Both the position numbers and the translations under genes were made by a program. From positions 1-54,976 of the IMG/VR virus record IMGVR_UViG_3300012117_000001: a stretch of 54,976 nt of DNA; one strand, given 5' to 3'. The first letter of the stretch is position 1; each line of letters opens with the position of its first letter. Of the stretch, positions 4,943 to 54,976 are shown in pieces. Under the pieces are notes generated by a model, which saw nothing but the letters and a program-made list of their open reading frames with translations, searched no databases and was not told the origin of the DNA. The stretch is from a virus.

Positions 4943-5479
4943 ATGAAAGCTTTAGAATTTTACGAGATATATGCAAAGCTCAAGTTGGCTCATTCTAAGG
5001 TAAACAAAGTCTTCAGTGACCTTAACCTAAGCATTAGTGATTTGAAATTTCTGAAGTCGCAAAATCGTCAGCTCAGAGAGAATAACCTTAGAATCTACAA
5101 TGACCTTGAAAATTTAAACTCAAAAAACACCAAACTGAAATATGAGTTAGATAGTTCGTTGAGGGCGCTTATACTTCATGAGAAATCAATTGAAGGTTTA
5201 AATAACAAAGTTAACGCAGGTCTGCATAACGAAAAATTCTTACTAAAACAAATAAAAATTCTAGAGCAAAAAGTCCAAAATTTAAGTGTACCGAAGGAGG
5301 CTCCACGGAGAATCCAGACAATCCAGACAAGTTGGCAATCAGCGCCTGCACGTAAGATGGGGCCTGCTGTCCCTTTGGGTATGGAAGGATTCCGTGAAGT
5401 ACCTTCAGGATATGATGAAGTAATGCAGAATCAGATAGAAGACATGGGGTTAGATTATGACCCTAGTGAATGGGACTAA
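4943..5479 (+). CDS. Coiled-coil protein of unknown function encoded antisense to the baseplate operon
   Basis: 178-aa ORF on the opposite strand. The N-terminal 120 aa are heptad-rich (LKFLKSQNRQLRENNLRIYNDLENLNSKNTKLKYELDSS). A weak AGGT lies 8 nt before the ATG. It sits 4 nt tail-to-tail with the spike gene. Confidence 0.6.
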   Translation: MKALEFYEIYAKLKLAHSKVNKVFSDLNLSISDLKFLKSQNRQLRENNLRIYNDLENLNSKNTKLKYELDSSLRALILHEKSIEGLNNKVNAGLHNEKFLLKQIKILEQKVQNLSVPKEAPRRIQTIQTSWQSAPARKMGPAVPLGMEGFREVPSGYDEVMQNQIEDMGLDYDPSEWD

Positions 5480-12000: not shown

Positions 12001-12749
12001 TGGATACCCGAGCCAAGGGAGGCTTGCAGCCTTCTGCTAACTTTCGCTACATCATGGGAATGTGCTGCTGAATCTGAGTAACCAGCCCCACTTACATATG
12101 ATGCTGCTACTGCTTCAATAGCTTGCTGAACCTGTAGACCGCCCAGTGATTTAGGTGTGCTGTACTCAGCCATCAGTTGTTCATCGTTACCATCATAGTA
12201 ACCAGCCATGCCGCCAAGGATATCCAGTCCACCAGCATTGCCTGTTGAGTAACCCTCAAATTTACTAAGGACGCCCCTCAACTCTCTCGGTAATGGGACA
12301 TAAGTCGAGTTTCGATATTCAGAAGGAATCTGGCTAAAGACATCAGCTGGTTCCACACCAGCTTGTCGCAAAGAAACTAATATATTGTTGTGCAAACTCT
12401 CATGCGGATTGTTATAAGCATATGCAAAAGCTTGAGCTCCACTATCGCTAGACATTAATGTCTCTGCAATTTCGGATGGGAGTAATGTATCAATATCCGA
12501 GCCAAGCCCTAATATTGATTGCCCGCTATAATATGAGTGTTCTTCCCCATGAGAATCTAAATAAATGTTTTCTTCTTCTAGAAGTTGGCTCATGCCAGAC
12601 AATGCTGCTGCACTGCTGGCAAGATATACTTCCCTAGCCAACTCTTTTTTACCCATTCGTGACGACATGGGCGCATTAAAACGTAGTGCTAATTCCGCTA
12701 GGTCTTCAACACCCATTTTCATTAAAGAAGCTAAATCGTATGACATCAT
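9054..12749 (-). CDS. Multidomain tape measure protein (HeH motif, YqaJ-like nuclease block, TMP region, SLT lytic transglycosylase)
   Basis: 1231 aa at the tape-measure position after the G/GT pair.
- N-terminus: MGVEDLAELALRFNAPMSSRMGKKELAREVY, a Rho-N/HeH-like motif.
- aa ~440-620 (nt ~10950-11430): SPEW..SAS..GHRLE..Y..LGVSPDGLVGSDGLVEFKAP, resembling YqaJ/lambda-exonuclease PD-(D/E)XK domains.
- A Gly-rich linker followed by an Ala/Gly-rich TMP-like region.
- nt ~9330-9615: SLT motif AESGGDPHAKN..GTARGLYQV. Confidence 0.8.
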   Translation of the reverse strand: MMSYDLASLMKMGVEDLAELALRFNAPMSSRMGKKELAREVYLASSAAALSGMSQLLEEENIYLDSHGEEHSYYSGQSILGLGSDIDTLLPSEIAETLMSSDSGAQAFAYAYNNPHESLHNNILVSLRQAGVEPADVFSQIPSEYRNSTYVPLPRELRGVLSKFEGYSTGNAGGLDILGGMAGYYDGNDEQLMAEYSTPKSLGGLQVQQAIEAVAASYVSGAGYSDSAAHSHDVAKVSRRLQASLGSGIQSIATQIAHEKAMGKEAYTSYADILPQTISDDLLQGISGAIIPDREGMRSVRTNMRGIAAVYGYGSASNNQTGVTGLSTPHQINEHLDNVNERMLELGRAIGETSKHDTDIEYLSEGYQDRSATITIPSSLSEALVSSRKSSEDYSNFVGPMVQSVIAAPINNSAATPKFASELEFTQRSTEISTSGITFHNVAQNSPEWDALRADNVSASVAGSLLGHNKHGDPLSAIFGAVGFNPLGIENLHNQNFDRGHRLEAVGRSKYGAKFGVEVGQTGFVTNDLYPGLGVSPDGLVGSDGLVEFKAPVANRFFDPSSRPEYLDQVQMQMAVTGRKWADIAQVGENYGNDGKPYHWLGRVDRVHADPEWAAQNAERLQHFGGMIKEGRSLLGAVESGSISKEEFLETMSKAVARGTAEGVEFIRAKNESTVNSYDRVGDTTSSGYGYGHGVRSGFGLSGNGRGGSGNGGSGYVPNWDFAEGKQPLLLSGPDNTSTEEDADFDQSMSKAEFDHNMRGIISGKSFAKEPKEGVGSAIQQMLAGNAPGGATGNLLKLLSVAAPEVALPVAALVGTAQAVSDGIDAMQGEFTAASDAGIFNVNAYTTSNQNFEALGLDEGQAHNLTGNIGNAAATLSVGDPTATSRIVVGSRGLITIQDVRSTTDPSQLVAIAAQRAKARGFTGQQFAGLMSMAGLNGAAAAYSANDTTLSDNAGRHDSIMNQANADAASNAMSDLRNSQISLSPRYMGLNLAEGVLSTGVSSGITGAIADGTSQAVQSGRVASAAVAALAGDIGKASASGADIIHLMEHAYIHAESGGDPHAKNIHGTARGLYQVTDGTAQHPWLGVVPAKDGSDAERARVGHDLFGAAMKHYGSDLIATTLAMHEGPGVIDAQIKKNPSGWKQHLTDEEEIYLRGIDNSFRAGFNTITTGSNAAPFLTNANSAQPATKLDVNVNIKGSTASADVTVNNKSVKRKDVKLNVGGNTHNIVA

Positions 12750-24087: not shown

Positions 24088-24096
24088 CAACTAATG
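24088..24096 (-). promoter_or_regulatory. Candidate phage-RNAP promoter (late operon)
   Basis: The minus strand reads CATTAGTTG-TGAGTGG. It lies 48 nt upstream of the Zn-ribbon ORF and 22 nt downstream of the terminator at 24118-24145. Confidence 0.6.
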
Positions 24097-24172: not shown

Positions 24173-24634
24173 CTACTTCATGAGTTCTGCTGCTTTATTC
24201 CTTAATAGATCAAGCTCTCGAGCATGTCTACTGTATATCTCATATCGTTTAAGTTTCCAGAGACCAAAAACTTCTACAATATTGTCTGCACTGAGATAAC
24301 CTTGAGATATAGCATATCCCTCATCAATCCAACCCTTGAATTCCTTCTGGTAAAGACTACTAAGTAACACTCGGATGGTTTTATACTCTTTCTTCCTTTC
24401 CCACTCTCCGTCTTGAATGTAAGCACTATAATCATTCACCGTGATACTGTAAGCATGCACATAATGATTTTCTCTCTCATACTCGCTTTCAGCGAAAAGC
24501 GCGTACTTTCCAAATAAGCTATTCAACCATGACTGAGTATCATAATAGAGGAAAGAGTAGCAATCACCAACTAATGTAATGTCTTCAGTCAGGTCACTAC
24601 TCTCCCCATCTCTGAGAGGTTTCTTCATCATCAT
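24173..24634 (-). CDS. Hypothetical protein
   Basis: 153 aa with an ATGATGATG start. It is the last gene before the terminator. Confidence 0.6.
   Translation of the reverse strand: MMMKKPLRDGESSDLTEDITLVGDCYSFLYYDTQSWLNSLFGKYALFAESEYERENHYVHAYSITVNDYSAYIQDGEWERKKEYKTIRVLLSSLYQKEFKGWIDEGYAISQGYLSADNIVEVFGLWKLKRYEIYSRHARELDLLRNKAAELMK
24568..24576 (-). promoter_or_regulatory. Motif copy inside a CDS (possible internal promoter or chance)
   Basis: Exact CATTAGTTG-GTGATTG, but within the 5' end of 24173..24634, where it codes TLVG. Confidence 0.25.
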
Positions 24635-29085: not shown

Positions 29086-29946
29086 TTAGAACGGAACCAT
29101 GGAGGTTGCGCTCGAATCGGTGCCAGTTGCTGTTACAGCTGCTTGCCGTGCCAGTTCAGCTTCCATAGCTGCATCTACATCAGCTTGGCTTACTTCAGCC
29201 TCAGCAGATTCTTGCGCATCGTTCTGCGCCGGTGCAGTGCCAGATTCACCCAGCAATGCTGCTAGTTTTGACTTGTAGAATTCTGGGCCAGACTTGATAC
29301 GTTCTTGAGGGCACCACTGGTTACCGAATGGAAGTTTCTTAAAGATCTCTACATCCGGGTTATCCATATCGAAGAAGACCGGAACATTCACCAATGGTGG
29401 TGCAGTTTTCTTATCTTTCCCCTTCATTGCAGCGAAAGCTGAGACTTTATTCACCATCTTCCCAGCATTTTTCCCAGACTTGCTCATCTGTTGAATGAGG
29501 TTGATAGTCAGTGGTTCTGACAATAGTTCTTTCAGTTCTTTTGCAGGGTGACCAACAATTCCTTGTTCAGGATTTGCCAAGACTTCAAATGCATCTACAG
29601 ACTGCATTAATTTAAAGATATGAGAACGTTCACCCATGAAGCCATCAGGATTATAAGTGAACTCGAAATCAAACCAACGTGGTTTATCTTTCAGTGCCGC
29701 TGGGACCATTTCATCATCTTCTTGCACCATCTTAATAGAGCCATCTGCATTTACTTCACACATGAATTCATCAAGCAGTTCAAACTTCATAATAAGTTTA
29801 CATGCTGGATTTGGGTATTGACCGCTACCAGGTTGTAAACCTAAATCAATGATTTGAACAATACGTGCAGAATATCCACCAGCATCTAACAATGGTGCAG
29901 CAGAAGCTACGTTATTTGATTGTTTTGTTGCAGCTACAAAAGCCAT
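29086..29946 (-). CDS. Possible ssDNA-binding/annealing protein (T7 gp2.5-like position)
   Basis: 286 aa between the FEN and DNA polymerase genes. The C-terminal third is acidic and ends SMVPF. The assignment is weak and positional. Confidence 0.3.
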   Translation of the reverse strand: MAFVAATKQSNNVASAAPLLDAGGYSARIVQIIDLGLQPGSGQYPNPACKLIMKFELLDEFMCEVNADGSIKMVQEDDEMVPAALKDKPRWFDFEFTYNPDGFMGERSHIFKLMQSVDAFEVLANPEQGIVGHPAKELKELLSEPLTINLIQQMSKSGKNAGKMVNKVSAFAAMKGKDKKTAPPLVNVPVFFDMDNPDVEIFKKLPFGNQWCPQERIKSGPEFYKSKLAALLGESGTAPAQNDAQESAEAEVSQADVDAAMEAELARQAAVTATGTDSSATSMVPF

Positions 29947-35416: not shown

Positions 35417-37273
35417 TCAGCCATGACCATGTTTCACACGGCTAATAACTTCGTTTTGTTTGCCAGAAATAAATGGCCGTGCATTCGGAGCACCTAAATA
35501 CCCACACACACGTCTTGTTACTTGTAATGTTCCTGAATGGTTCCCACAACAAGGGCATTCAAATCCATTCTCAGTGGCTATAGTTTCACCTGCGTAATCA
35601 CATTCGCCACAATAATCAACGGGAGTATTAATCCCAAAGTAATGGACATGCTTCGCTGCATAGTTGATTACAAATTCGAGTGTATCAATCTTCCCTTTCA
35701 TGTTTGGTAATTCAACATAGGAGATACATCCGCCGGTGGCGATTTTGGTGAATGGCTTCTCGTAGTCAAATTTTGACGTAGGGCTTACTTGCCTGTTTAC
35801 ATCAAGATGATGGGAGTTGGTGTAGTAACCTTTATCTGTCACTTTATTAACACCGAAAGTAGCTGAATCTAAACGGCAGAAACGGTCACATAAGCTTTCA
35901 CTTGGTGTTGCATACAAGGCATAGCCCAGATGAGTTTCAGCCTTCTTCTCATCAGTACGCTGATGGAGGTATGTGAGTACAGCAATCAGGAATTCGTTAA
36001 TCTCAGGAGTGTTGATATCTGGCTGGCCATCAAAGCCTGGGCGAATATCATCGAACATTGCTATAGCTAGTTCGTGAAGACCAATGTAACCAAGGGAAAC
36101 CGAAGCACGATCTTTAAAGTGCTCAAAGACATACTCATCTGGTTCAAGCCTTAAACCAAATGCACCCTCACAGTAAAGGATAGGCGCGACTTTGGCCTTA
36201 ATACCTTTCAACTTGGATACACGATACTCGAGAGCGTCGAACGCAGTGTCTGTGGTTGCCCGAAGTAACCCCCAGAACACTTCCATGTTCCCTTCTGCCA
36301 ACATACCAACTCGCGGCAGATTGATTGACACAACACCAAGGTTATTCCTGCCATCCACTTCACCACTGCTCGTTGCAGATAAGAATGAACGACAACCCAT
36401 CGGGGCTTTGAAGTCACCTGTTACCTCTACTACACGGTCGTAGCTCAGATAATCGGGGTACATTCGTTTGGCAGTGCATCGCATTGCGAGTTGCTTGATA
36501 TCGTAATTAATATCACCAGCCTGCATATTCACACCTTCTCTAAGGGTGAATACTAATTTAGGGAATACAGCTGTGCGCCGATAACGTCCCAGTCCATCCA
36601 TCCGAACTTTCAAGATTTCCTCTTGGATAAGACGAGATTCCCAATCTGTGCCAAGGCCAAAACCTATAGTGACGAACGGCGTCTGACCGTTAGCTGTGTG
36701 TAACGTATTCAGTTCATACTCTAGTGCCTGAATAGCATCATGGGCTTCTTTACGCACCATCTCTGTAGCCATTACAGATGCACTAGCTTCATCGCCCTTC
36801 AGCCATTTACGGGCAAAAGCGTGATGCTTGTTATAAGATTTGCGAACATACACAGCCATAACCTCATCGAAGCGGTTAAGGCTTTGTCCACCGTATTGGT
36901 GAGAGGCAACTTGAGCTACGATCTGTGCTGTGACAGCCACGGCTGTTGAGATACTTTTTGGTGTCTCGATGTCAGCGTTACCCATCTTGAACCCATTACT
37001 TAGCATCCCCTCCAATTCGATCAAGCAGCAATTCGTCATTGCGAATGCTGTGTAATCTAAATCATGGAAATGGATGTCCCCAGAGATATGGGCAGAAGCT
37101 ACATGCTTAGGCATTTCTTGCAGTTCAAGATATTTACTAACTTCACCAGCAACCATATCCCTTTGAACCGGAATACGTTCACTCGCTTTATTAGCATTAT
37201 TGTGAAGCAGTGTGCTATCTGCACTACTGTCGATAATACCTTTGATATTATCTAATGTGTCAGACAGTTCCAT
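35417..37273 (-). CDS. nrdD: Anaerobic (class III) ribonucleoside-triphosphate reductase
   Basis: 618 aa with the C-terminal glycyl-radical motif RVCGYLG and a zinc site CGEC..CPCC. GGAG lies 5 nt before the ATG. Confidence 0.9.
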   Translation of the reverse strand: MELSDTLDNIKGIIDSSADSTLLHNNANKASERIPVQRDMVAGEVSKYLELQEMPKHVASAHISGDIHFHDLDYTAFAMTNCCLIELEGMLSNGFKMGNADIETPKSISTAVAVTAQIVAQVASHQYGGQSLNRFDEVMAVYVRKSYNKHHAFARKWLKGDEASASVMATEMVRKEAHDAIQALEYELNTLHTANGQTPFVTIGFGLGTDWESRLIQEEILKVRMDGLGRYRRTAVFPKLVFTLREGVNMQAGDINYDIKQLAMRCTAKRMYPDYLSYDRVVEVTGDFKAPMGCRSFLSATSSGEVDGRNNLGVVSINLPRVGMLAEGNMEVFWGLLRATTDTAFDALEYRVSKLKGIKAKVAPILYCEGAFGLRLEPDEYVFEHFKDRASVSLGYIGLHELAIAMFDDIRPGFDGQPDINTPEINEFLIAVLTYLHQRTDEKKAETHLGYALYATPSESLCDRFCRLDSATFGVNKVTDKGYYTNSHHLDVNRQVSPTSKFDYEKPFTKIATGGCISYVELPNMKGKIDTLEFVINYAAKHVHYFGINTPVDYCGECDYAGETIATENGFECPCCGNHSGTLQVTRRVCGYLGAPNARPFISGKQNEVISRVKHGHG

Positions 37274-37416: not shown

Positions 37417-37557
37417 TTACTTACGTTTAGCTAATGATGTTACAAATATTGCCAGCACCACACCAATACAAATACCCTCAAACAAAAGCTTAAGGGTATT
37501 GTGCATAGCGAGAGCAGCTAACAGTGCAATAACTGCGAGAGTTAGCTTTGCTTTCAT
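37417..37557 (-). CDS. 46-aa double-helix membrane peptide coupled to terB-like gene (below ORF cut-off)
   Basis: The ATG shares its A with the terB-like TGA (TGATG). The product MKAKLTLAVIALLAALAMHNTLKLLFEGICIGVVLAIFVTSLAKRK has two hydrophobic segments. Confidence 0.55.
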   Translation of the reverse strand: MKAKLTLAVIALLAALAMHNTLKLLFEGICIGVVLAIFVTSLAKRK

Positions 37558-37997
37558 CAGATGAAATCTTCCAGACGCATACCCAGAATCTGCCCAGCTT
37601 CCTTCAGAGCACGTTCTTCATGCTCATCAATAGTGCCATCACCTGCTAGCGCGATGGAGATCATATTGACGAATACTTCTGCTGAATCTGATTCATTATG
37701 GGCGATATCTTGCAGTTCTTTCTTGGCTTCAAAGCGAAGAACAGGCATACCAACCAGTTCAAATTTCTCACGATAGCGATTCAGATTCTGAGTGATTTCT
37801 GCACCAAAGTGAGCCAATTTATCATTGGTTTTGATGATTGCTTCCAAGCGCGAAATCTCTTTAGAATCGATGTCACCATCAGCTGCTGCAACCCAGATAG
37901 CACCGGCTACAATCGCTTGCATCAATTCACGATTTTCCAGTTTCTTAACAGCTGATTTTAATTCTGCTTTCTTCTTACCGAAGTTAATACCAAACAT
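37557..37997 (-). CDS. terB: TerB-family protein
   Basis: 146 aa with two TerB-type repeats (AAADGDIDSKEISRLEAII; ALAGDGTIDEHEERALKEAGQILG). It is collinear with E. coli TerB. Confidence 0.75.
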   Translation of the reverse strand: MFGINFGKKKAELKSAVKKLENRELMQAIVAGAIWVAAADGDIDSKEISRLEAIIKTNDKLAHFGAEITQNLNRYREKFELVGMPVLRFEAKKELQDIAHNESDSAEVFVNMISIALAGDGTIDEHEERALKEAGQILGMRLEDFI

Positions 37998-38002
37998 ATT
38001 AG

Positions 38003-46339: not shown

Positions 46340-46348
46340 CAACTAATG
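46340..46348 (-). promoter_or_regulatory. Candidate phage-RNAP promoter
   Basis: CATTAGTTG-GGTTTGG lies 133 nt upstream of ATG 46207. Confidence 0.5.
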
Positions 46349-47460: not shown

Positions 47461-47722
47461 ATCGCCCTTCCCAATATTCATCCCAGCATTCACGGATTTG
47501 TTTACGAGTGGGCTTGCACTGAAAACGGAAGCAACAATCATAGATTGGATTCATACATACAATAGAAACAGTGAATCTATTCTCTGATCTATCTCTTACC
47601 CAAAGACTCTTAGATTTATCATCCCAATTAGCAACAAAATTTGCTGCCTTTTCAATTACCGCTTGATTTGTGAAGTACACATTGATACTTACTTCTTCGT
47701 TATAATTCTTTATGCCCAGCAT
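47450..47722 (-). CDS. Small protein, tandem paralogue 1 (CKPTRKQI motif)
   Basis: 90 aa with GAGGGAG 7 nt before the ATG. Confidence 0.6.
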   Translation of the reverse strand: MLGIKNYNEEVSINVYFTNQAVIEKAANFVANWDDKSKSLWVRDRSENRFTVSIVCMNPIYDCCFRFQCKPTRKQIRECWDEYWEGRYAE

Positions 47723-47888
47723 TATTAATCTCCCTCAAGTACGCAATCGCAACTTCGCGAGGATTGATGGCTCTGATGAATTGCGAAAAGTAGCTGATAG
47801 TCATAGAAAGTCCCATTGAAGAAAATGTCTCAGCATCTGTACTAATTTCATTAGCAAATGCATCAACCCTGTCTCTGTTAATTTCCAT
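47700..47888 (-). CDS. First early-block protein
   Basis: ATG 47888 has GGAG 5 nt upstream, giving 62 aa. It is the first ORF after the coding desert. Confidence 0.6.
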   Translation of the reverse strand: MEINRDRVDAFANEISTDAETFSSMGLSMTISYFSQFIRAINPREVAIAYLREINNAGHKEL

Positions 47889-47941
47889 CACTTCTCCATA
47901 ATTAATGTGACAGTATAAGTGGCATTACTTCTCCTCACTTA

Positions 47942-47950
47942 CAACTAATG
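47942..47950 (-). promoter_or_regulatory. Candidate phage-RNAP promoter (early block)
   Basis: CATTAGTTG-TAAGTGAGG lies 54 nt upstream of ATG 47888. Confidence 0.55.
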
Positions 47951-48225
47951 CCGCAAACTTGATGCAATTTCACTACAATAGGACATGCCATACATAGATA
48001 AGTAGTCGTTCAAGATATCGACATTACTACTACCGATTGCACAATACATGTAGATGCAAGGTCATTATTTATTAATAAATGACCGACAATCTCAATTTGG
48101 TATCAAGGATGAGTTACCACATTCAACAAGAATGACATGCCAGATTCGTAACAAATTTAATATTCGTACCGGCACAAAAAGACTAACAGATGAGTGGTAA
48201 AATCAACCCATAACAAAGGTATTAA

Positions 48226-48799
48226 TTCCAATATCTGTGACAACGAATGAAAAGGTTGCTGCAAGTCTACATGCACTACTGACACAGAACTGCGCCAATA
48301 TTTACATGCCAAAATGCAGCAGATTCTCATGCAGAGACTGTGGCTAATTTACATGCACATTTGTAACAGTATTAACATGCGATACTGTTACAGATATACA
48401 TGCGATAATCGTTCACGTATTAACATGCACAATTAGTGAAATATCTGTATCAATTCTAAAATGGTAAACAAAACGATTTATGTAATAATATACCAATTCA
48501 ACGGTGTCTGATTTGCTATCACTTTCCTTCAATTTCGTACATTTTCCAAATCTCCCTCACCTACTGACTGTTCTTGTTATTGCAATAGCTACCAATATTG
48601 TGGAACAAGGGTATCTCACCTTACCACTAGTAGACGCACACTAACTCACAGAACTCCTTGTAAGAATATTGGGAGAATCAGAGACCTACTCCTGCAACAG
48701 TACGACATGCAATTCGCAACAATGCTCGTATCAATCTTGTTATAGATTGAGGACAATGGGTAGCAAACTGACATGCCTATACTGTTACAGATATTGGAA
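48226..48799. repeat. Repeat/operator-like array (ACATGC iterons, palindromes, 13-bp flanking inverted repeat)
   Basis: - ACATGC at 48269, 48304, 48351, 48375, 48398, 48423, 48705 and 48771, plus 47983 and 48135 outside this span.
- An 11-bp inverted repeat, TGTAACAGTAT (48362) / ATACTGTTACA (48382).
- Flanking arms TTCCAATATCTGT (48226) / ACAGATATTGGAA (48787).
- CCAATAT five times. Confidence 0.8.
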
Positions 48800-49120
48800 C
48801 TCAGAGGATTTATTAATTAATAATAAAATCCTCAGTTCCTGATTTGGTCACATGATTAACTCACTGATGCGAAGAGATTAACCACAAGTTAGTTACTATG
48901 TTCACAGCGCTATGAACAGGGAGTTCCAACTTATAGACTTTCTCTCACATCAATGTTCTCCAATCTTGTACAAACGCCTTCGTACATATGCCGGAATACT
49001 CGCGACGACACTCGGAACAAGTCTGGATTGCGTTAGCCAGGACTTATCTCAGTGGTTGGAAATCAGTAATCATGTGACCACTTTCTTTACTGCTTTGGTA
49101 AACATAGACGCTTCAAGATT

Positions 49121-49232
49121 ACACTATGGTTGGTGCCTATCTCGAAAGTCGGATGATTGCCCTTTCTCACTACCAACTAATGGCAATATTGAATTCATAC
49201 TTACAATAGAAACTACACTATGGTTGGTGCCT
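49121..49232. repeat. 18-bp direct repeat in the leaders of the tandem motif copies
   Basis: ACACTATGGTTGGTGCCT occurs at 49121-49138 and again at 49215-49232. Each copy lies just downstream (minus sense) of a CATTAGTTG copy. Confidence 0.85.
49174..49182 (-). promoter_or_regulatory. Candidate phage-RNAP promoter (tandem copy 2)
   Basis: CATTAGTTG-GTAGTGAG lies 70 nt from the copy at 49244 and fires into the ORF-free tract. Confidence 0.5.
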
Positions 49233-49243
49233 GTTTCCATACC

Positions 49244-49252
49244 CAACTAATG
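49244..49252 (-). promoter_or_regulatory. Candidate phage-RNAP promoter (tandem copy 1)
   Basis: CATTAGTTG-GGTATGG, located in the coding desert downstream of the RNAP gene. Confidence 0.5.
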
Positions 49253-49515
49253 CTGAGTGGTCAACAATGCTGAAGATGTCGAACACCACCGTCAACTAGT
49301 GTTAAAGCAGGTTGCAAGTCGTGATGCCATCTCGGGCTAACCCAAGTTGAGTGTTTGCTAGATGGTTAGGTGTGGATGCCCTATCAACAGCGTAGCACCA
49401 AGACTCCGGGCATATGTCGTGTTACTAAGGTTGCCTTATGGTTGAGGTCTACCTATGCAACTGTAATAGAAGCCACCTTGCTCAGATGACTTCGATAGAG
49501 TTACTCAGGTTTATG

Positions 49516-49559
49516 CACAGAAGAAATATGAATGTTCAGAGAAAATCATCTCTTCTGTG
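49516..49559. terminator. Hairpin just past the RNAP stop codon
   Basis: CACAGAAGA (49516-49524) pairs with TCTTCTGTG (49551-49559), with an inner ATGA/TCAT pair. A T-rich run follows only on the plus strand (ATTGTTTGTTCTTG). Confidence 0.4.
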
Positions 49560-49579
49560 ATTGTTTGTTCTTGATGGAA

Positions 49580-51463
49580 TTAAATACCACCAAGTTGTTT
49601 TGCTAAGTGCGTAAGGGGGTTGTTATCGATGAAGATCTCTTTATACGCTTCTGCAATCACATTGTGCAGTTTAGGTGCATCAGCAAGACAAACACGGAAA
49701 CAGTCATGGATGGATGTGTACCCACGTAAGCCAGCTTGTTTAGCCTTCTTGGCAACAGTACGCGCAATCAATGCATCAATACCCTGCACGAAGTGGACAA
49801 CAAAGGTACGTACAAATTCTTCTGCGGATGGCTCCCGAGCTTGTGTCGTCCATGGTGTCTTCTCTTTAACATTACCAAAGTTAACCAATGTGTCAGCACC
49901 AACCCGAATCGAGAATGCATCACAGATGATGATATCTTTCTCGAAGCAAGGCTTCACAACTTTCAAATTATCAATGTGAGTGTATGACAGGTACGCCTTA
50001 CTGGTATCCATCAACTTGTTGCTTACAGCTAATTGTAATGCCTCAATCAGTTTGTTAATGCGTTCACCTAAGGTGATTTTCACTGCGTTTAGGGTCAATT
50101 CAACGAATGCTGCCATATCCTGGGTGCCTAGCCCTGTGCTATCTAATGCACTGATAAAATCTTTGTTAGTTAATAAAGCAGCTTTACCTCCACCGTACTG
50201 AACAGACATGTAAGGACGTTTAGCAAAGTTACGAGTTAGGATTGATTCATCAACCTTCGCTCCCAGTGGGTTTACTTTGAGCAGTTTCTTGATGTTCTTA
50301 AGGCACAACATGTAAGGGTCATCAGATGTGCCAGCAGTTGTGCGAAAACCTGTTGCTTCTACTAGTTCATGTGAGCCGGCAAGTATTGCAAGTATCTGTG
50401 TACCTGAACATTTAGCATCCTCACCATACCCAAGACGGGAATCACATTTGCCTGTAGTTTCAAACTGCAACCAGTCATATGCCATACGAACATATGTCAG
50501 AGGCTTTGATGGAATTGATTTACCATCAATCTCACGCTGTAAGATCTTCTCAATTGCTTCATCAGGTTTGTTTCCTGCAAATGCCAGATATGCTGGACTC
50601 ATCCACTCATCACTACCCGCCACATCCCTTAGTTCAGTAATGAAGATATCGTAAGCATCACTACCTTTATCAACCCAATTTTCAACATTGTGAGAGTAGT
50701 AAGCTCGAGCCATATCCCCAGATTGAGGATTCGGGCCAAAGCAGGCTTCGTGGTACAAGCGACCTCTTGCATCACCTGATTGTTCAGAGAAAAGCTCTTC
50801 CTCATTCATGACTAACTCAGAGCCTTTATGCACATACATCTCAGCATCCAGACGTGGGTACAACTTGGCGTTTATATTCGTCATATTTGAACGCTTCCAT
50901 GACTCAATCACTCCATATACCGCTTGTCCCATGCGCGACTCAACATGGTAAGACGTATCAGATAGGAACTGAGCAGCTTCCTTGAACAGCTTTGATGCTG
51001 GAACTTTATTACCTTTGATGAATGGAACGCGGCGTGTCTCATCTGTGATGCGCTCGGATAATGGAAGAAGTGCATGAGAAGTCTGTGTCAAGTGTACCCA
51101 CTTACTGGTGAGGCTTAACTGGTCTTCATCATTGCTTACCCAACGCATAGATACAGCAATATCAACCATCTCTTCAGGAGTATTGGTGAGATACATAACC
51201 TTCTTATCTCTGTTACGGGTATGAACTAATTCAATAGCCTGTCCCATATACTCAACCATCTGAGCATACCCAACCTTGCATTCAACATCTGGTAAGTAAT
51301 TAAGTGCTGTGTAGATGGCAAATGCAGCAAAGCCTAATTGTTCATTGGCTTGGAAACCACACTCTTTATGATGCAAAGAAACACCAATAGCAGGTAATAC
51401 ACAATCCAGTGCAGCTTTACGAGCAAATGAAATAGCATCAGAATGGGTGAAAGCATTAGACAT
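49580..51463 (-). CDS. T7-family single-subunit RNA polymerase, compact form
   Basis: 627 aa, with GGAG 7 nt before the ATG.
- DARGRLY at aa 231 (T7: DWRGRVY at 421)
- Motif A: YGEDAKCSGTQILA, with D349
- Motif B: FAKRPYMSVQYGG, with K415 and Y423 spaced as T7 K631/Y639
- Motif C: TSIHDCF, with H586 and D587. Confidence 0.85.
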   Translation of the reverse strand: MSNAFTHSDAISFARKAALDCVLPAIGVSLHHKECGFQANEQLGFAAFAIYTALNYLPDVECKVGYAQMVEYMGQAIELVHTRNRDKKVMYLTNTPEEMVDIAVSMRWVSNDEDQLSLTSKWVHLTQTSHALLPLSERITDETRRVPFIKGNKVPASKLFKEAAQFLSDTSYHVESRMGQAVYGVIESWKRSNMTNINAKLYPRLDAEMYVHKGSELVMNEEELFSEQSGDARGRLYHEACFGPNPQSGDMARAYYSHNVENWVDKGSDAYDIFITELRDVAGSDEWMSPAYLAFAGNKPDEAIEKILQREIDGKSIPSKPLTYVRMAYDWLQFETTGKCDSRLGYGEDAKCSGTQILAILAGSHELVEATGFRTTAGTSDDPYMLCLKNIKKLLKVNPLGAKVDESILTRNFAKRPYMSVQYGGGKAALLTNKDFISALDSTGLGTQDMAAFVELTLNAVKITLGERINKLIEALQLAVSNKLMDTSKAYLSYTHIDNLKVVKPCFEKDIIICDAFSIRVGADTLVNFGNVKEKTPWTTQAREPSAEEFVRTFVVHFVQGIDALIARTVAKKAKQAGLRGYTSIHDCFRVCLADAPKLHNVIAEAYKEIFIDNNPLTHLAKQLGGI

Positions 51464-51639
51464 GATAAATCTCCAAGTTATTAGATGTTTTGAGTTAAAT
51501 AGCAGTAGGAAGAATTTAGGTAACGGGTCCTACTTTTCTTCTTACCTTCATTCCGACTCTCACACCTCCTAACCAAAAAATTTTTATAAATGTCACACGC
51601 ATAAGCTTAACCTCAATAAAGATATCCAGTATTCGTAAC

Positions 51640-51648
51640 CAACTAATG
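51640..51648 (-). promoter_or_regulatory. Candidate phage-RNAP promoter upstream of the RNAP gene
   Basis: CATTAGTTG-GTTACG lies 177 nt upstream of ATG 51463. Confidence 0.5.
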
Positions 51649-51924
51649 CTTAAAGGTATTCTTCAAACTGGACGTAATTATTACCTCTTAAGAATTAATA
51701 ATTAAGTTTGTGTAGTGTGTAATTTTATTCACTATAAATAATTGAAGAGATAATTCTATTTTGGCATTAGCAATGGTAGAAATTGACATATATTAAATTA
51801 ATTTTAATTTATAAAATAAAATTATGAAATATTGATCTGGCGCACTTGACACGCTAATTTTTTGAGATAAGATATTTATTATCTAGTGGCTGAAAAATAT
51901 TTAAGCAGTTAGTTAACGGGAACC

Positions 51925-51933
51925 CAACTAATG
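51925..51933 (-). promoter_or_regulatory. Candidate phage-RNAP promoter (distal, after the lysis cassette)
   Basis: CATTAGTTG-GGTTCCC lies 38 nt downstream (minus sense) of the endolysin stop. Confidence 0.45.
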
Positions 51934-51970: not shown

Positions 51971-52603
51971 CTAAGCTTGTAGGCTACTAGTGTCATCATT
52001 CAATATATAAAATAAATGATTCCCATACCTCTCAACAAATATAAACTCTTTACTTAGTACCCAATGTGGCTTTGACTTTACTCCAGCTGGTGCGTAATAG
52101 GATGTTGCCGGAGTATTCAATCTTCCATGAAATACCACTACATAAAAAGCAACCCAAATACTCCCCTTCAACTCTTTATCATCAATCTTTTTATGAGAAG
52201 ACATCACTGATTTGTAATGAGCAATTAACTTCTTATTATCCGTCCAAGAGAATTGGTGTGGTTGGTAAATGACATTACAAATTTTGGATGGATAATTTTT
52301 GTTATGAACACGATTTATAACGACGCTTGCAACCTTTAGCTTACCTGAGATATCCTCCCCTCTTGATTCCATGTACACATTCCTAAGCATACATTTAAAA
52401 GGAAGCATCCTATTATGTGGTAGTGATAACCTGCCCATTGAGTACATATTTGTTGCGTAGTTAGATAATAGCTTTATGCTTTCATTCTTTATGTAATCAA
52501 ATTGTGGAGAAACTCTGATAGGTATAATAACTTCTCCATGCACTCCAATTACGATAAACAATGAAAGCACAATACCCAGCATTGCCTGTAGTTTGTGCTT
52601 CAT
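51971..52603 (-). CDS. Endolysin, SleB-type cell wall hydrolase with N-terminal membrane/signal anchor
   Basis: 210 aa. The core CMLRNVYMESRGEDISGKLKVASVVINRVHNKNYPSKICNVIYQPHQFSW matches the SleB/Hydrolase_2 pattern. The N-terminal LGIVLSLFIVIGV helix suggests a SAR-type endolysin. Confidence 0.75.
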   Translation of the reverse strand: MKHKLQAMLGIVLSLFIVIGVHGEVIIPIRVSPQFDYIKNESIKLLSNYATNMYSMGRLSLPHNRMLPFKCMLRNVYMESRGEDISGKLKVASVVINRVHNKNYPSKICNVIYQPHQFSWTDNKKLIAHYKSVMSSHKKIDDKELKGSIWVAFYVVVFHGRLNTPATSYYAPAGVKSKPHWVLSKEFIFVERYGNHLFYILNDDTSSLQA

Positions 52604-52616
52604 AATTATTGCCTGA

Positions 52617-52931
52617 TTATTTATTTAAATTTTTACCAACAAAAGTGTCAAAGATATTTGTGATAACTTTCAATAGGTACTTACTACCTACACCGCCAAT
52701 GACCATGCAAAGTAGAATTGCTGAGTCATGGTTAGCTGCATAGACCTTGGTGAAGTATTCTGTGTGAAGAACCGCAAGAGAAAAGACTCCACACAGAGCA
52801 CTGTCAATGATTACAGTCCCGAAATTATCATGATTTAGGATGCCGCGAAGAAATGAGATTACGATCGTAAGAATAATACTTGAACCTTCATTCCCAATAT
52901 ATTGCGCGATGGATGAGATACGATTTAGCAT
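52617..52931 (-). CDS. Holin (lambda S-like)
   Basis: 104 aa with three hydrophobic segments. The blocks FLRGILNHDNFGTVIIDSALCGV and MVIGGVGSKYLLKVITNIF parallel lambda S blocks [23 protein letters not shown] and VFIGYIGTDSIGSLIKRF. Confidence 0.7.
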   Translation of the reverse strand: MLNRISSIAQYIGNEGSSIILTIVISFLRGILNHDNFGTVIIDSALCGVFSLAVLHTEYFTKVYAANHDSAILLCMVIGGVGSKYLLKVITNIFDTFVGKNLNK

Positions 52932-52994
52932 AATATTTATTTTAAGTTAATTAAGATTCTCCCCAATATTAGTTTTGACTGATACTGTACTGTT

Positions 52995-53933
52995 TCAATC
53001 CATTAAGTTAACGACGTTTTCTGCCTTAATGTGTGTGTATTTTGCCAACATAGTAATACTTTTGTGGCCTGATATGCATTGTAATTGCAGTGCACTCAGA
53101 CCCTTTTCGGCATATCTTGTTATGCAAGTGTGCCGCAGTGAGTGGAAACATGCGCCAATTACTCCGGCTTTATTACATGCCCTTTCAAATGCTTTAGATA
53201 CACTTTTCGGTTTAACTCCGAATAGGCAAGAAGTGGGAGTACATTTATCACAGAGACCTTTTAAAATTGATTCCGCATTTGTTGAAAGAGGGACGCTTCG
53301 ACTCTCCCCATTCTTAGTGACACCACCACTGAGATGGACTATTTTCTTATCGAAAAATACCATTTTAGGTGTGATTGAAAGAATTTCATTCCTCCGCATT
53401 GCGGTCTCATAGGCTACTATTGCGATGCTTTGCATCTGAGGTGATAGGAATTTCAATATTTTTTCGAATTCAACTTTAGTGAGAACTCTATCTCTTGGCT
53501 TGCTTGCTTTAGGTTTCCTAACATCGGCAGTAACGTCAAAATCAACTAATGTTAATTCTTTCGCCCATCTTAAAAACCGGGATAAGAGTTGAATTTCTAA
53601 TCTTACTGTAGTTGTAGATACCTCCATCAACCTCTTATCTCTATATTCAACAACTCTTAACTTCGTAATGTTTCTTAAATCTTCTTGAAAGAAACGTGAA
53701 AGAGTGTTCAACTTAAACTTGATTGTTTCATAACCTCCACGTTGCACCCCCTTTACTGTCATCACATTAAGTAGATATTTATCCGACAAGGAAGCTAAGT
53801 TATTAATTTTACCGTTCTCATTTATCCATTTTTGGGCATCCTTAAGATTACTGAATGTTTTAGCAAGCTTTAGATCGTTAACTTTAATGCGAGCTTGGTA
53901 ATTCCCAGATGGGAGTATTCTGACATTTCCCAT
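52995..53933 (-). CDS. int: Tyrosine integrase
   Basis: 312 aa with the C-terminal catalytic pattern HSLRHTCITRYAEKG..SGHKSITMLAKYTH (R..HxxR..Y). Confidence 0.85.
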   Translation of the reverse strand: MGNVRILPSGNYQARIKVNDLKLAKTFSNLKDAQKWINENGKINNLASLSDKYLLNVMTVKGVQRGGYETIKFKLNTLSRFFQEDLRNITKLRVVEYRDKRLMEVSTTTVRLEIQLLSRFLRWAKELTLVDFDVTADVRKPKASKPRDRVLTKVEFEKILKFLSPQMQSIAIVAYETAMRRNEILSITPKMVFFDKKIVHLSGGVTKNGESRSVPLSTNAESILKGLCDKCTPTSCLFGVKPKSVSKAFERACNKAGVIGACFHSLRHTCITRYAEKGLSALQLQCISGHKSITMLAKYTHIKAENVVNLMD

Positions 53934-53987
53934 GCATACCCCTTCTAATCTATATTATGAATAAGCCCACTAAATTAGGTGCTCAAT

Positions 53988-54659
53988 ATGCCTACGCTAT
54001 TCCACAGACCTCTAGTACATAAGACGACAATGTTTGAATTTATTCGTGATTCTAAGCCAATAAAAGATATAGAAATCCTTATTGATGCATTACTGCCTTT
54101 CTCCCAGATTGCACATTTAAAATCAAATCAAAGATATGAATTAGCACACAACGGGGAGGATATCTGCTGGCTGATACTTAAAGGTTCGTTGACTGTTAGG
54201 AGGGCCACTGATGACCTAATCATGTGCAGGATGACCCCTCCTGCAATACTCGGGCTTGCATTGATTACATACCCAAGTACGAATCTTTACCTACAGGTTG
54301 ATGACAGGTCAGAGGTAGCAACCCTGCCCATCGAAGTTCTTGAATCGACGCTAGACAAGTATCAATTATGGAAGTCTGTAGCTAGTGTTCAGGCATATGT
54401 AACTCAAGCGCTAGTAATTAGGGAGTCAACGTTAGTAGTTAGGTCTGCTTATGAAATTATCTGCAATCAACTACATTACCTCATGGGGGAACCCATCCAA
54501 CATCGCCGCGCATACACTGTCACCAACTACATCCTTCAACGAACCCATATATCGAGAAGTAGCATAGTTAAGATACTCCGTCAGTTACAGGATGGTGGAT
54601 ACATTGTTATGAAGAACAACAAGTTGGTGTCTATAAATTCCCTCCCAGAAGGTTACTAA
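53988..54659 (+). CDS. Crp/Fnr-like transcription regulator (candidate lysogeny regulator)
   Basis: 223 aa from ATG 53988, with AGGT 7 nt upstream; GTG 53979 is an alternative start. It has an N-terminal beta-roll-like region (ICWLILKGSLTVRR) and a C-terminal HTH (RTHISRSSIVKILRQLQDGGYIV). It is divergent from int. Confidence 0.6.
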   Translation: MPTLFHRPLVHKTTMFEFIRDSKPIKDIEILIDALLPFSQIAHLKSNQRYELAHNGEDICWLILKGSLTVRRATDDLIMCRMTPPAILGLALITYPSTNLYLQVDDRSEVATLPIEVLESTLDKYQLWKSVASVQAYVTQALVIRESTLVVRSAYEIICNQLHYLMGEPIQHRRAYTVTNYILQRTHISRSSIVKILRQLQDGGYIVMKNNKLVSINSLPEGY

Positions 54660-54716
54660 TTCGTGCCAAACACTTTATCAAAAAATACTCTTAACTCGTT
54701 GTAAATCAATAATAAA

Positions 54717-54754
54717 GTGACTCCAAGAAACGAACCTATTAAGTCTGGAGTCAC
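54717..54754 (+). terminator. 9-bp stem hairpin downstream of the regulator gene
   Basis: GTGACTCCA (54717-54725) pairs with TGGAGTCAC (54746-54754) around a 20-nt loop. No U tract. Confidence 0.25.
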
Positions 54755-54863
54755 AGAAAGAATGAATAAAGAAAAATGAAGGAGTTATGACGGACATTGG
54801 CGCCTGAAGCATTGGTCATAAAAACAGCACACATAATGATATAGCGCATATTTTCGACTGAAC

Positions 54864-54976
54864 ACATCGTTGTAGCTTATAAATTGGCGAAAATATCTCC
54901 CGTTTTGCCACCTGAATACATTAATTTCAATAACGTGCTTTCAGCCCTAAAGAAAATTTTGGTTATGCCGACATCT
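54864..54976. repeat. Terminal direct repeat, right copy (exact duplicate of 1..113)
   Basis: Identical to positions 1-113. Confidence 0.95.

Follow-up and report, generated by a model that had tools for sequence, protein, structure and literature searches.

The window analysed here, a stretch of 54,976 nt, is an integrated Chaseviridae-like prophage with an integrase, and in the gene-free tract that follows its RNA polymerase gene it carries an array of ten GCATGT units, all in one orientation, spaced along the turns of the helix and conserved in its relatives. In relatives for which the ends of the direct terminal repeat (DTR) have been mapped, the array adjoins those ends. We tentatively propose that the array is a field of protein-binding sites on one face of the DNA that would mark the inner DTR boundary for concatemer processing or packaging, a reading that we hold to be possible rather than probable and that we weigh below against several alternatives.

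Gene context of the array

All sizeable genes of the window lie on the minus strand, except an HTH gene. A T7-like single-subunit RNA polymerase of 627 aa (49580..51463, minus strand; Pfam PF00940, PHROG 414) shares 42–44% identity with the RNA polymerases of Chaseviridae, and the replication module is likewise T7-like, comprising a primase-helicase, a family A DNA polymerase, an SSB, an exonuclease and a ligase. TerL was identified in the window, and a 153-aa ORF upstream of it had no PHROG or other family match. Annotation of about 45 window proteins with Pfam and PHROGs yielded no HTH, Rep or TerS candidate for a protein that binds the array, and no Rep, O-like or DnaA-like initiator family was found among the scanned proteins, many small ORFs being without a family. 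The HTH_46 (Pfam) regulator at 53979-54659 is located at the border between prophage and chromosome, beside chemotaxis and T6SS genes. A scan of a genome collection with the RNA polymerase recovered no relative, and a scan of viral contigs returned only a Faunus-like contig.

From the stop codon of the RNA polymerase gene to the first early ORF, a tract of about 1.7 kb (47892-49579, read in gene sense on the minus strand), the ORF list shows no credible ORF on either strand. The description of 48226-48799 as ORF-free in the initial annotation is thus borne out, and the gene-free tract is larger than was stated there. Searching the tract against Rfam gave nothing with the gathering threshold and only a chance miRNA match (E = 0.15) with an E-value threshold, a tRNA search found none, and a nucleotide search against phage records gave no match.

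Anatomy and statistics of the array

On the plus strand, ACATGC occurs at 47983, 48135, 48269, 48304, 48351, 48375, 48398, 48423, 48705 and 48771, and the other strand has no copy within the same span. Ten copies in 799 nt compare with 0.21 expected when the rest of the window serves as background (Poisson probability of at least ten, 4.5e-14), in agreement with the ten against about 0.2 first reported, and the clustering retains a P value of about 5e-9 under a harsh correction for position. Over the whole window 39 copies were found and 39 expected, indicating no window-wide enrichment; the signal is purely one of local clustering and strand bias. Because the genes of the window lie on the minus strand, the biologically relevant reading of the motif is GCATGT on that strand. 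This gene-sense reading was missed in the initial annotation.

Read in this direction, GCATGT is the head of a composite unit of about 24 bp, GCATGT-N5-TGTNACA, in which the asymmetric hexamer is followed, after 5–6 nt, by the small palindrome TGTNACA. The palindrome occurs five times in the tract against 0.6 expected, and its symmetry is typical of sites for dimeric DNA-binding proteins. Six exact GCATGT copies form a dense cluster on the minus strand at 48251..48428 (G at 48428, 48403, 48380, 48356, 48309 and 48274), with spacings in gene-sense order of 25, 23, 24, 47 and 35 nt, exactly those given earlier in the opposite order, and with a TGTNACA-like element 5–6 nt after each unit. A degenerate unit, GCATGA (TCATGC on the plus strand), lies at 48327-48332 inside the 47-nt gap. 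The sequence context proposed for the cluster, T(T/A)ACATGC(A/G), is found around four of its six copies and fails at the other two. Two proximal units (48687..48776, minus strand; G at 48776 and 48710) are located upstream of a 282-nt gap, and two distal units (47965..48140, minus strand; G at 48140 and 47988) score 18.9 and 16.5 bits with a position weight matrix (PWM). This matrix was built from relatives only; it scores the dense-cluster units at 16.6–21.1 bits and finds ten units in the tract, with a single other match of at least 16 bits in 55 kb.

Spacings between units fall into groups at 22–25, 33–38, 44–48, 53–60, 66–69 and 74–76 nt, that is, at multiples of about 11, and the vector strength of the phasing is 0.63 at a period of 10.75–11. 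Since the spacings are multiples of about 11 bp, successive sites would lie on the same face of the helix, and with sites so placed a cooperative coating of the array by a phage-encoded protein is conceivable. Tandem Repeats Finder did not detect the array in the tract, because the units are too degenerate for it.

Palindromes and hairpins in the tract

The perfect 11-bp inverted repeat described in the initial annotation is present (TGTAACAGTAT at 48362-48372 and ATACTGTTACA at 48382-48392), with a GCATGT unit in its 9-nt spacer. It is built from two neighbouring palindromic modules CTGTNACAG and extends to 21 nt at 86% complementarity. Folded as single-stranded DNA, the hairpin at 48362-48392 reaches -11 kcal/mol (z = -3.9), and the repeat is invariant in the prophage loci L007 and L009. 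The T-module ATACTGTTACAGATAT (sense strand ATATCTGTAACAGTAT) at 48779..48794 has a second exact copy at 48382-48397; accordingly, the repeated unit ACATGC(N1-2)ATACTGTTACAGATAT does recur at 48375 and 48771/2, as first noted. A search for inverted and direct repeats located related copies of the module at 48230-48242, 48440-48452 and 47906-47916. A terminal module, TTCCAATATCTGTGACA (48226..48242), is the inverted partner of 48783-48799, so that the pair brackets 48226-48799; its counterpart in lytic relatives, TGTGACAATATTGGGAA, is placed after the dense-cluster units.

Immediately adjoining the dense cluster, on its upstream side in gene sense, is an AT-rich stretch with 27–29% GC (48400..48549). 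Shortly past the RNA polymerase stop codon, a minus-strand hairpin, GAAGTCA...TGGCTTC followed by TATTA (49469..49493), resembles a terminator. The sequence around it is conserved in L007 and L009, the terminator scan missed it, and phage Y2 has a clear intrinsic terminator at the matching place. An imperfect hairpin of 15–16 bp with an AT-rich loop (48797..48839), directly upstream of the first GCATGT unit, and a second conserved hairpin at 48060-48084, found in the repeat search, are both retained with sequence changes in L007 and L009. When the unit was compared by eye with the extended -10, sigma-54, CRP, NrdR, TyrR, ArcA, PhoB, MatP and LexA consensus sequences, none fitted in spacing. 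The idea that the modules hold T7 primase sites (GTC) was also rejected, GTC not being conserved in those of the window.

Conservation of the array

Equivalent ORF-free tracts of 1.1–3.3 kb occupy the same position in ten relatives, and gene calling in relatives likewise puts no gene there. The array is kept in this tract in all ten of the GCATGT-bearing relatives examined, which include lytic genera and a temperate sister clade, and in all 11 genomes it is co-oriented with the genes. Across the 11 tracts (the window and its ten relatives), GCATGT occurs 115 times in sense and 4 times in antisense orientation. Among the window, L007 and L009 the core of the array is invariant while the flanks diverge, and L007 has units homologous to the two proximal units of the window at 5257 and 5325. 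In six lytic phages, aligned GCATGT copies were kept in 64% of comparisons, whereas a hexamer taken from anywhere in the tract was kept in 20%, and none of 10000 random hexamer sets reached 64%. The aligned copies show the GCATGT units to be under purifying selection throughout the family, as judged from their retention. The initial annotation had proposed a comparison with close relatives and named absent or unconserved repeats as the outcome contrary to its reading; the array was found to be conserved.

The array is also sharply confined. In phage Mangalitsa, PWM matches of at least 11 bits occurred only at 475-4094 of the 50 kb scanned, those on the sense strand only at 2505-4094, and the last 2.3 kb contain one GCATGT by simple count. 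More distant RNAP-myophage lineages have different one-orientation repeats in a comparable ORF-free tract beside the RNA polymerase gene. Since the motif differs in these lineages, the binder would be a co-evolving phage-encoded protein rather than a conserved host factor. We found no simple covariation between the 3' half of the promoter and the array motif in the distant lineages; in L017, for example, the promoter is TTTAGTTGTATAAGAGA and the array motif AGTGTGA. Our literature search gave no usable description of this array.

Relation to the direct terminal repeat

Counted from the inner DTR end, the dense cluster has its first GCATGT 84 nt on in Mangalitsa, 102 in Myduc, 75 in 4HA13, 67 in Y2 and 90 in PM1, all of them lytic relatives; three of these five ends are PhageTerm predictions taken from GenBank annotation, and the five phages share ancestry, so that the offsets are not independent observations. 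Applied to the window, the 67–102-nt offset of the relatives predicts an inner (right) DTR end at 48495..48530, and the Myduc boundary aligns weakly with the window at about 48517, near which we infer that the DTR of the window phage ends. The predicted outer (left) end falls at about 51536 (AAAGTAGGACCCGTTACCT, 51525..51545), to which the starts of three lytic genomes (AATACGGTCCCT...) align, again weakly. The predicted DTR would be about 3.0 kb long, within the family range of 2.6–3.2 kb. Modules related to those of the array, AATATTGnnACAATATT, occur just upstream of the outer DTR end in Mangalitsa and PM1; upstream of the predicted outer boundary of the window there are two GCGTGT and one TGTGACA, which is not significant. 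Logan contigs of 3 kb were rejected as delimiters of the DTR: the 3234-nt contig L023 is not bounded by the DTR, and the match in length is a coincidence.

These observations are consistent with the array being a cis-acting protein-binding field just inside the unique region, beside the long DTR. In concatemers, the DTR would carry the RNA polymerase gene, one or two phage promoters and the two proximal units, and the dense cluster would follow about 70–100 bp past the DTR end. A nucleoprotein complex assembled on the array could then mark the inner DTR boundary and take part in processing of the concatemer junction, that is, in cutting or nicking and in duplication of the repeat during packaging, and this complex may be met by transcription that starts at the upstream CATTAGTTG promoters. 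Both the binding of a protein to the array and its role in packaging are put forward here on the strength of position, phasing and conservation. Several points stand against this proposal. No TerS, Rep or HTH binder is recognisable among the neighbouring or early genes; the DTR end is sharp and lies 67–102 nt from the cluster, not within it; the DTR boundary of the window is itself only predicted, from weak alignments; the counterpart array beyond its predicted outer boundary is weak; and the 3' half of certain putative promoters (ATTAGTTGCATGTGAAT) consists of GCATGT. In a more specific form, which we regard as rather doubtful, the GCATGT/TGTNACA field would define the end of the ~3-kb DTR, with a protein polymerising on one face of about 10–16 phased sites and, together with RNA polymerase arriving from the DTR promoter, positioning the cut about 70–100 bp upstream.

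Putative phage promoters and alternative explanations

The motif CATTAGTTG, to which the phiEcoM-GJ1 record gives the label 'putative phage promoter 1/2', has ten exact copies dispersed over the window where 0.9 would be expected; all are in sense orientation, and several precede gene starts. The form common to the family is CATTAGTTG-N3-GTGAAG. One putative promoter for the phage RNA polymerase, GGCATTAGTTGTAAGTGAGGAG (47928..47951, minus strand), precedes the first early ORF by about 50 nt, its CATTAGTTG at 47950-47942 falling between the array and that ORF, in a position like that of T7 phiOL. Two tandem putative promoters on the minus strand (49160..49253; CATTAGTTG at 49252-49244 and 49182-49174, with the box GGCACCAACCATAGTGTA after each copy) are conserved in L007 and L009. 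By its dispersal and placement, CATTAGTTG is a better candidate than the array for the promoter of the family RNA polymerase. It is nonetheless conceivable that the phage RNA polymerase uses the array units as stacked core promoters or as loading sites, or that they are operators of an early-to-middle switch, and that from the left end they drive or gate transcription of the entire co-oriented genome. Every unit points along transcription, the units sit between the polymerase gene and all the genes that it must transcribe, and, since some putative promoters have GCATGT(G)AA as their 3' half (for example TATCATTAGTTGCATGTGAA in phiEcoM-GJ1), a transcriptional role is possible; the ICTV profile lists Chaseviridae promoters as not yet identified, and our literature search found no transcription start sites or transcriptome for the family. 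Against this, the array units do not have the 5' CATTAGTT half and are confined to the tract, while it is CATTAGTTG that is dispersed through the genome. Helical phasing and an embedded palindrome are foreign to promoters of single-subunit RNA polymerases, the sequence downstream of GCATGT is AT-rich where the promoter motif is purine-rich, and the sense strand has no sigma-70 signal. We therefore consider a transcriptional function unlikely, while granting it an appreciable chance. The same cannot be said of host promoters on the opposite strand. The initial annotation proposed a plus-strand sigma-70 promoter stack for an antisense or non-coding RNA, and its hexamer pairs and spacers (TTTACA-16-TATTAA, TTAACA-17-TATACA and TATACA-17-TATTAA) exist as described. 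Yet these are poor sigma-70 matches, all -10 candidates (TATTAA, TATACA) being without a T at position 6; promoter-like sites are not enriched, with three in 47500-49800 against 7.5 expected from shuffles and none in the dense cluster; the conserved GCATGT and TGTNACA do not coincide with the -35 and -10 positions; in 11 genomes the array is oriented with the minus-strand genes; and there is no Rfam match. Such a stack is extremely improbable.

A replication origin would account for other features of the tract. Here the phased units would be iterons beside an AT-rich unwinding region, located after the RNA polymerase gene as is the T7 primary origin, and RNA made from the phage promoters on either side would serve to prime or activate initiation by the T7-like primase-helicase and DNA polymerase. 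The window has a T7-like replication module, the tract directly follows the RNA polymerase gene and has putative phage promoters on its flanks, four units stand at a period of about 24 nt (25, 23 and 24 nt) beside the stretch of 27–29% GC, and both phasing and selective conservation are seen. However, T7-type origins need promoters and AT-rich DNA rather than iterons, no initiator gene is recognisable among the scanned proteins, the array contains no DnaA box, and an origin does not account for the constant offset from the DTR end; strand skews give no information here, the genes being all co-oriented. We judge an origin to be quite unlikely on balance. Strand-specific nicking, with GCATGT or an adjacent module as the recognition sequence of a phage nickase concentrated at the DTR boundary, would explain occurrence on one strand only, which is the hallmark of the nick sites of T5, phiKMV-like phages and tf. 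All 14 nicks of phage tf are in TACT/RTGMC, on the top strand only (PMC3517423), and TACTGTTAC in the window and TATTGTGAC in lytic relatives are each one base off the tf sequence TACTGTGAC. This resemblance is short and possibly due to chance, TATTGTGAC is reported as un-nicked in tf (PMC3517423), known nick sites are dispersed along genomes and not gathered within 1 kb, and no nicks have been reported for Chaseviridae, making this explanation very improbable. Immunity operators for the 'Crp-like' winged-helix regulator (53979-54659), another option raised in the initial annotation, have in their favour that TGTNACA palindromes resemble dimer sites, that TGTGA is a CRP-like half-site and that an integrase-bearing prophage carries them. 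Yet no Chaseviridae record contains a homologue of the regulator, though the lytic phages of the family carry the same array; gene calling in the related prophage loci L007, L009 and L010 gave no HTH_46 gene beside the integrase; and the regulator sits at the chromosome border. We give this option almost no credence. What stands of the earlier view of an iteron or operator field is the iteron-like field itself, for which the options of a packaging site or an origin fit an array that is phased, conserved and adjacent to the DTR, whereas Crp-like operators and plus-strand promoters do not.

Parallels in other phages

The proposed boundary array would be the counterpart of the T7 SRL, a short-repeat array located between promoter phiOL and the T7 terminal repeat with its concatemer-junction pause site; a second such array, SRR, flanks the repeat on its other side. 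In T7 the repeat ends at 160, CTGTTACAG lies at 164-172, twelve copies of (C/A/T)TAAAG follow at 176-356, mostly with a 13-nt period, and phiOL is at 405. Like the array of the window, the SRL is a 6–7-nt motif in one orientation with regular phasing, followed by a promoter for the phage RNA polymerase, putative in the window, and it begins just inside the unique region past the left repeat, as the Chaseviridae array does in five relatives. The two phages have in common a T7-type RNA polymerase and replisome, and the window module ATATCTGTAACAG matches T7 CTATCTGTTACAG at 11 of 13 positions. The two differ in the length of the unit (a composite of about 24 nt in the window, 13 nt in T7), of the repeat (about 3 kb against 160 bp) and of the gap to the repeat end (67–102 nt in Chaseviridae relatives, about 15 nt in T7), and in Chaseviridae, unlike in T7, the RNA polymerase gene lies within the repeat. 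GCATGT/TGTNACA and CCTAAAG are not homologous in sequence, and the likeness is architectural only. To our knowledge the function of the T7 SRL has not been established, and our search of the literature found nothing usable on it; the analogy therefore transfers architecture and not mechanism.

Other systems share some of these features. The primary origin of T7, downstream of gene 1, consists of the promoters phi1.1A/B and an AT-rich stretch and has no iterons; the tract of the window, with putative phage promoters on either side and the RNA polymerase gene before it, mirrors its arrangement. Iteron origins, such as those of lambda and of plasmids, resemble the array in having phased direct repeats of about 20–24 bp with internal dyad symmetry and an AT-rich neighbour, but in the window no initiator gene or DnaA boxes were found. 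The R sites of lambda cosB and the pac boxes of SPP1 are repeated protein-binding sites about 50–200 bp from the cut that makes the genome end, and the Chaseviridae array is comparable as a set of repeated sites near a genome end, an adjacency observed in the relatives. Compared with these terminase arrays there are more sites here and all are direct, the ends are long direct repeats rather than cohesive or headful ends, and the window has no recognisable TerS. In phage T5 the injection-stop region, a non-coding stretch rich in direct and inverted repeats, is found at the inner end of a long terminal repeat that carries the genes expressed first; it is part of that repeat, its motifs are unrelated to those of the array, and Chaseviridae are not known to transfer their DNA in two steps. 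T7-type promoters and the array are both co-oriented with the genes, and in some promoter copies the 3' half overlaps with GCATGT.

Implications for Chaseviridae

How DTR ends are set in phages with long DTRs is poorly understood, and the array is a candidate element that is conserved, sharply delimited and easily mutated. It is now separated from the dispersed CATTAGTTG motif, with which it shares a tract. Chaseviridae are used for the biocontrol of Erwinia, Pectobacterium, E. coli and Yersinia, and knowledge of the cis-acting regions for packaging and replication aids phage engineering and the annotation of genome ends. This study also documents integrated, integrase-bearing relatives for a family that has been described as strictly lytic. 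If the more specific form of our proposal is true, phased arrays beside DTRs, including the T7 SRL and the arrays of L016–L018, would be a general, lineage-specific repeat-boundary device of phages that encode an RNA polymerase, and the phage of the window would show that such a phage can also be temperate.

Prophage setting and gene content

Nearly all genes in the window are carried on the minus strand, and we therefore refer to the ACATGC motif of the initial annotation in its gene-sense form, GCATGT. In the minus sense, a tyrosine integrase, a holin and a cell-wall hydrolase precede a T7-like single-subunit RNA polymerase (49580-51463, minus strand; Pfam PF00940, PHROG 414), which is 42–44% identical to the polymerases of Chaseviridae (Erwinia phages Faunus and Y2, Pectobacterium phage PM1, Proteus phage Myduc and Escherichia phage Mangalitsa). 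Downstream are small early ORFs, an ArdA antirestriction protein (42518-43072), a T7 gp5.9-like RecBCD inhibitor (39790-40008), TerB- and TerC-family genes (37557-38917) and the anaerobic ribonucleotide reductase NrdD (35417-37273), all on the minus strand, as well as a T7-type primase-helicase and a family A DNA polymerase. The replication genes are followed by myovirus structural genes; the tape-measure position (9054-12749, minus strand) is occupied by a 1231-aa protein that has both a virion-structural C-terminal region and a RecE/YqaJ-like exonuclease domain (residues ~406–655). The source contig runs on past 51971-54976 (locus L022, 1-10000) into chemotaxis-receptor genes, an acetyltransferase and the type VI secretion genes VipA/VipB. 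The Chaseviridae-like genes, the integrase and this chromosomal continuation together identify the window as an integrated prophage of the Chaseviridae type. Relatives within the genomes of Enterobacter ludwigii (L009) and Lelliottia wanjuensis (L010) have the same layout, and the latter also encodes an unusually large protein, with YqaJ and SLT domains. The window and prophages of this type form a temperate clade that is sister to a family described as strictly lytic.

A conserved, phased repeat array

The plus strand carries 10 copies of ACATGC between 47983 and 48776 and the other strand none in the same span, where 0.21 would be expected per 799 nt at the rate in the rest of the window (Poisson P = 4.5e-14). 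Across the whole window, 39 copies were found and 39 expected, so the signal is one of local clustering and strand bias. Re-examination of the sequence bore out the initial annotation's six-copy cluster with spacings of 35, 47, 24, 23 and 25 nt, its perfect 11-bp inverted repeat at 48362-48392 and its unit recurring at 48375 and 48771. The tract was rightly described as free of credible ORFs, but it extends over 1.7 kb (47892-49579) rather than 0.6 kb. As single-stranded DNA, the palindrome has a predicted fold of -11 kcal/mol (z = -3.9), and the small palindrome TGTNACA occurs five times in the tract, compared to 0.6 expected.

In all GCATGT-bearing relatives examined, the ORF-free tract that follows the polymerase gene is filled with gene-sense GCATGT, with 14 sense copies each in Mangalitsa and Myduc, 12 in phiEcoM-GJ1, 10 each in phiA050, 4HA13 and PM1, and 9 in Y2. 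Among the prophage loci, the closer, integrase-bearing L007 (polymerase 70% identical to that of the window) has 15, L009 (64%) has 8 and L010 (55%) has 3. Pooling eleven tracts gave 115 sense and 4 antisense copies. An anchored alignment of 57 units yielded a consensus of ~28 nt, consisting of a weak A/T preference, GCATGT, (A/C)A(A/T)T and TGTNACA, often followed by ATATT. With a weight matrix built from the relatives only, the ten window units scored 11.8–21.1 bits, and a single match of at least 16 bits was found outside the tract in the whole window, at 29805 (minus strand). That match (18.5 bits, AGCATGTAAACTTATT), which lacks the TGTNACA module and lies within the ORF at 29086-29946 directly after the DNA polymerase gene, is probably due to chance. 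Mangalitsa matches of at least 11 bits were confined to 475-4094 of the 50 kb scanned, and the sense-strand ones to 2505-4094; by simple count, the Mangalitsa genome has one GCATGT in its final 2.3 kb. The array units are tract-specific.

Alignment of the tracts of the window, L007 and L009 showed a mean identity of 67%, with an invariant core, GCnTGTATATCTGTAACAGTATnGCATGTnAATnCTGTTACAnATGTGCATGT, between divergent flanks. Among six lytic phages with tracts just 48–90% identical, GCATGT of Mangalitsa was kept in 64% of aligned comparisons, versus 20% for any tract hexamer, and none of 10000 random sets reached this retention. These comparisons indicate that the array is under selection. Two stretches of the window tract (48540-48670 and 48880-49060, minus strand) contain further blocks that are shared with L007 and L009 but are not GCATGT units, such as GGTAAGGTGAGATACCCTTGTTCCACA, AGTAGGTGAGGGAGATT, TTCCGAGTGT and TTGGAACTCCCTGTTCnTAGCGCTG; they have no Rfam match, and may signal the repeat end or belong to a structured leader RNA.

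Unit spacings of up to 80 nt (51 spacings in 8 genomes) fell at 22–25, 33–38, 44–48, 53–60, 66–69 and 74–76 nt. Vector strength peaked at 0.63 for a period of 10.75–11 nt, a value that cannot be read as a probability because homologous positions inflate the count. Successive sites therefore share one side of the helix.

Terminal repeat and location of the array

According to the ICTV profile, the terminal repeats of Chaseviridae genomes are long, at ~3 kb (PMC12842549). In each of five relatives, which are non-independent observations, the inner end of the direct terminal repeat (DTR) falls in the array's large gap, which measures 282 nt in the window and 214–414 nt in lytic relatives. PhageTerm annotations in GenBank place this end at 3234 in Mangalitsa, 3202 in Myduc and 3120 in 4HA13, lying 84, 102 and 75 nt, respectively, from the first GCATGT of the dense cluster; the two repeat copies in the records of Y2 and PM1 place it at 2608 and 2665, at distances of 67 and 90 nt. 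Applied to the window, these offsets predict an inner boundary at 48495-48530, and the Myduc boundary aligns weakly to ~48517. At ~51536, the predicted outer boundary, the window aligns with the first bases of three lytic genomes, implying a putative repeat of ~3.0 kb, within the family range. Directly upstream of the outer end, Mangalitsa and PM1 carry AATATTGnnACAATATT-related modules without GCATGT. Just upstream of ~51536 in the window, between the hydrolase and polymerase genes, 51650-51900 has 21–24% GC; one TGTGACA and two copies of GCGTGT (51849-51854 and 51595-51600, minus strand) are associated with this extremely AT-rich region, and Y2, PM1 and Mangalitsa have comparable A/T runs ahead of the repeat.

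A dispersed promoter candidate

A separate motif, CATTAGTTG, occurs 10 times in the window, always in gene sense, compared to 0.9 expected, and ATTAGTTG has 13 sense copies and no antisense copy. Copies of CATTAGTTG are located on the minus strand at 51640-51648, 49244-49252, 49174-49182, 47942-47950, 46340-46348, 41552-41560, 24568-24576 and 24088-24096, and also at 51925-51933 and 53543-53551. Several are intergenic and ahead of genes: the copy at 51648 precedes the polymerase gene, that at 47950 the first early ORF and that at 24096 the large terminase gene, and two more precede the ORFs starting at 46207 and 41514. A tandem pair (49252 and 49182) marks the start of the ORF-free tract. Each is followed by one copy of a 24-nt direct repeat (49120-49143 and 49214-49237; 92% identity, 94 nt apart; gene sense GGCACCAACCATAGTGTA), so that the putative promoter and a downstream box are duplicated together. 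The motif is common to the family, with the extended consensus CATTAGTTG-N3-GTGAAG in relatives, and the phiEcoM-GJ1 GenBank record annotates it as "putative phage promoter 1/2" (CGACATTAGTTGGATGTGAA, TATCATTAGTTGCATGTGAA). Eight dispersed consensus promoters were likewise hypothesized for PP101 (PMC6989608). The ICTV profile describes Chaseviridae promoters as unidentified (PMC12842549). CATTAGTTG is a better promoter candidate than the array units, and a concrete candidate for the promoter of the Chaseviridae RNA polymerase.

Possible roles of the array

Our preferred reading, offered tentatively and at less than even probability, is that the array is a cooperative protein-binding field. The field would mark the inner boundary of the terminal repeat and would act in packaging and in the processing of concatemer junctions, possibly coupled to transcription that starts at promoters inside the repeat. 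No binding protein was identified among the window proteins scanned with Pfam and PHROGs. A transcriptional element, either a stack of promoter cores or an operator field, is a rather unlikely alternative. GCATGT forms the 3' half of some putative promoter copies, so some relation between unit and polymerase is possible; however, the array units have no CATTAGTT half and are clustered rather than dispersed, and the phasing and dyad sub-site are predicted by cooperative binding and not by a stack of independent promoters. That the array is a replication origin seems more doubtful: it would fit the T7-like replisome, a location following the polymerase gene and an adjacent stretch of 27–29% GC, but neither an initiator nor DnaA boxes were found.

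Strand-specific nick sites, as in phage tf (PMC3517423), are quite improbable. We give very little credence to the initial annotation's proposal of operators for the "Crp-like" protein, a winged-helix HTH_46 regulator (53979-54659) at the prophage/chromosome border, since no Chaseviridae record contains a homologue of it and gene calling in the related prophage loci L007, L009 and L010 yielded none either. The plus-strand sigma-70 promoters suggested there are equally implausible, being unsupported by a promoter scan.

The cooperative-field reading has a parallel in T7, whose record (L013) shows a 160-bp terminal repeat, ATCTGTTACAG at 161-172, 12 copies of (C/A/T)TAAAG in one orientation at 176-356, mostly 13 nt apart, and promoter phiOL at 405. 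ATCTGTTACAG contains ATCTGTT, the concatemer junction's class II pause element. With the repeat end of the window at its predicted position, both systems share the order of repeat, small palindrome, phased one-orientation array and phage promoter (putative in the window), and the window module ATATCTGTAACAG matches T7 CTATCTGTTACAG at 11 of 13 positions, although the array motifs themselves are unrelated. The sense-strand module TATCTGTAACAG, found twice in the window (48779-48794 and 48382-48397), is nearly equal to T7 TATCTGTTACAG (157-172), which directly follows the terminal repeat and contains ATCTGTT; lytic Chaseviridae have ATATTGTGACA in its place, and the resemblance may be meaningful or due to chance.

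No published description of the array was found in the literature searched, and in the array stretch the phiEcoM-GJ1 record carries an annotation for the CATTAGTTG motif alone. The array, whose role is putative, is best grouped with the known arrays of short repeats next to terminal repeats, or with iteron-like fields. In more distant RNA polymerase-encoding myophages, a comparable ORF-free tract adjoins the polymerase gene and carries other one-orientation repeats: CTTGAATC in L016 (7392-8331), AGTGTGA in L017 (7414-7822), which also has nine sense copies of a dispersed TTTAGTTGTATAAGAGA motif, and a 12–13-nt tandem TGTGTAGGTTTTG in L018 (2992-3762), where the tract is upstream of the gene. 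These differences among distant lineages point to a putative binder that is encoded by the phage and co-evolves with its array, rather than to a conserved host protein.
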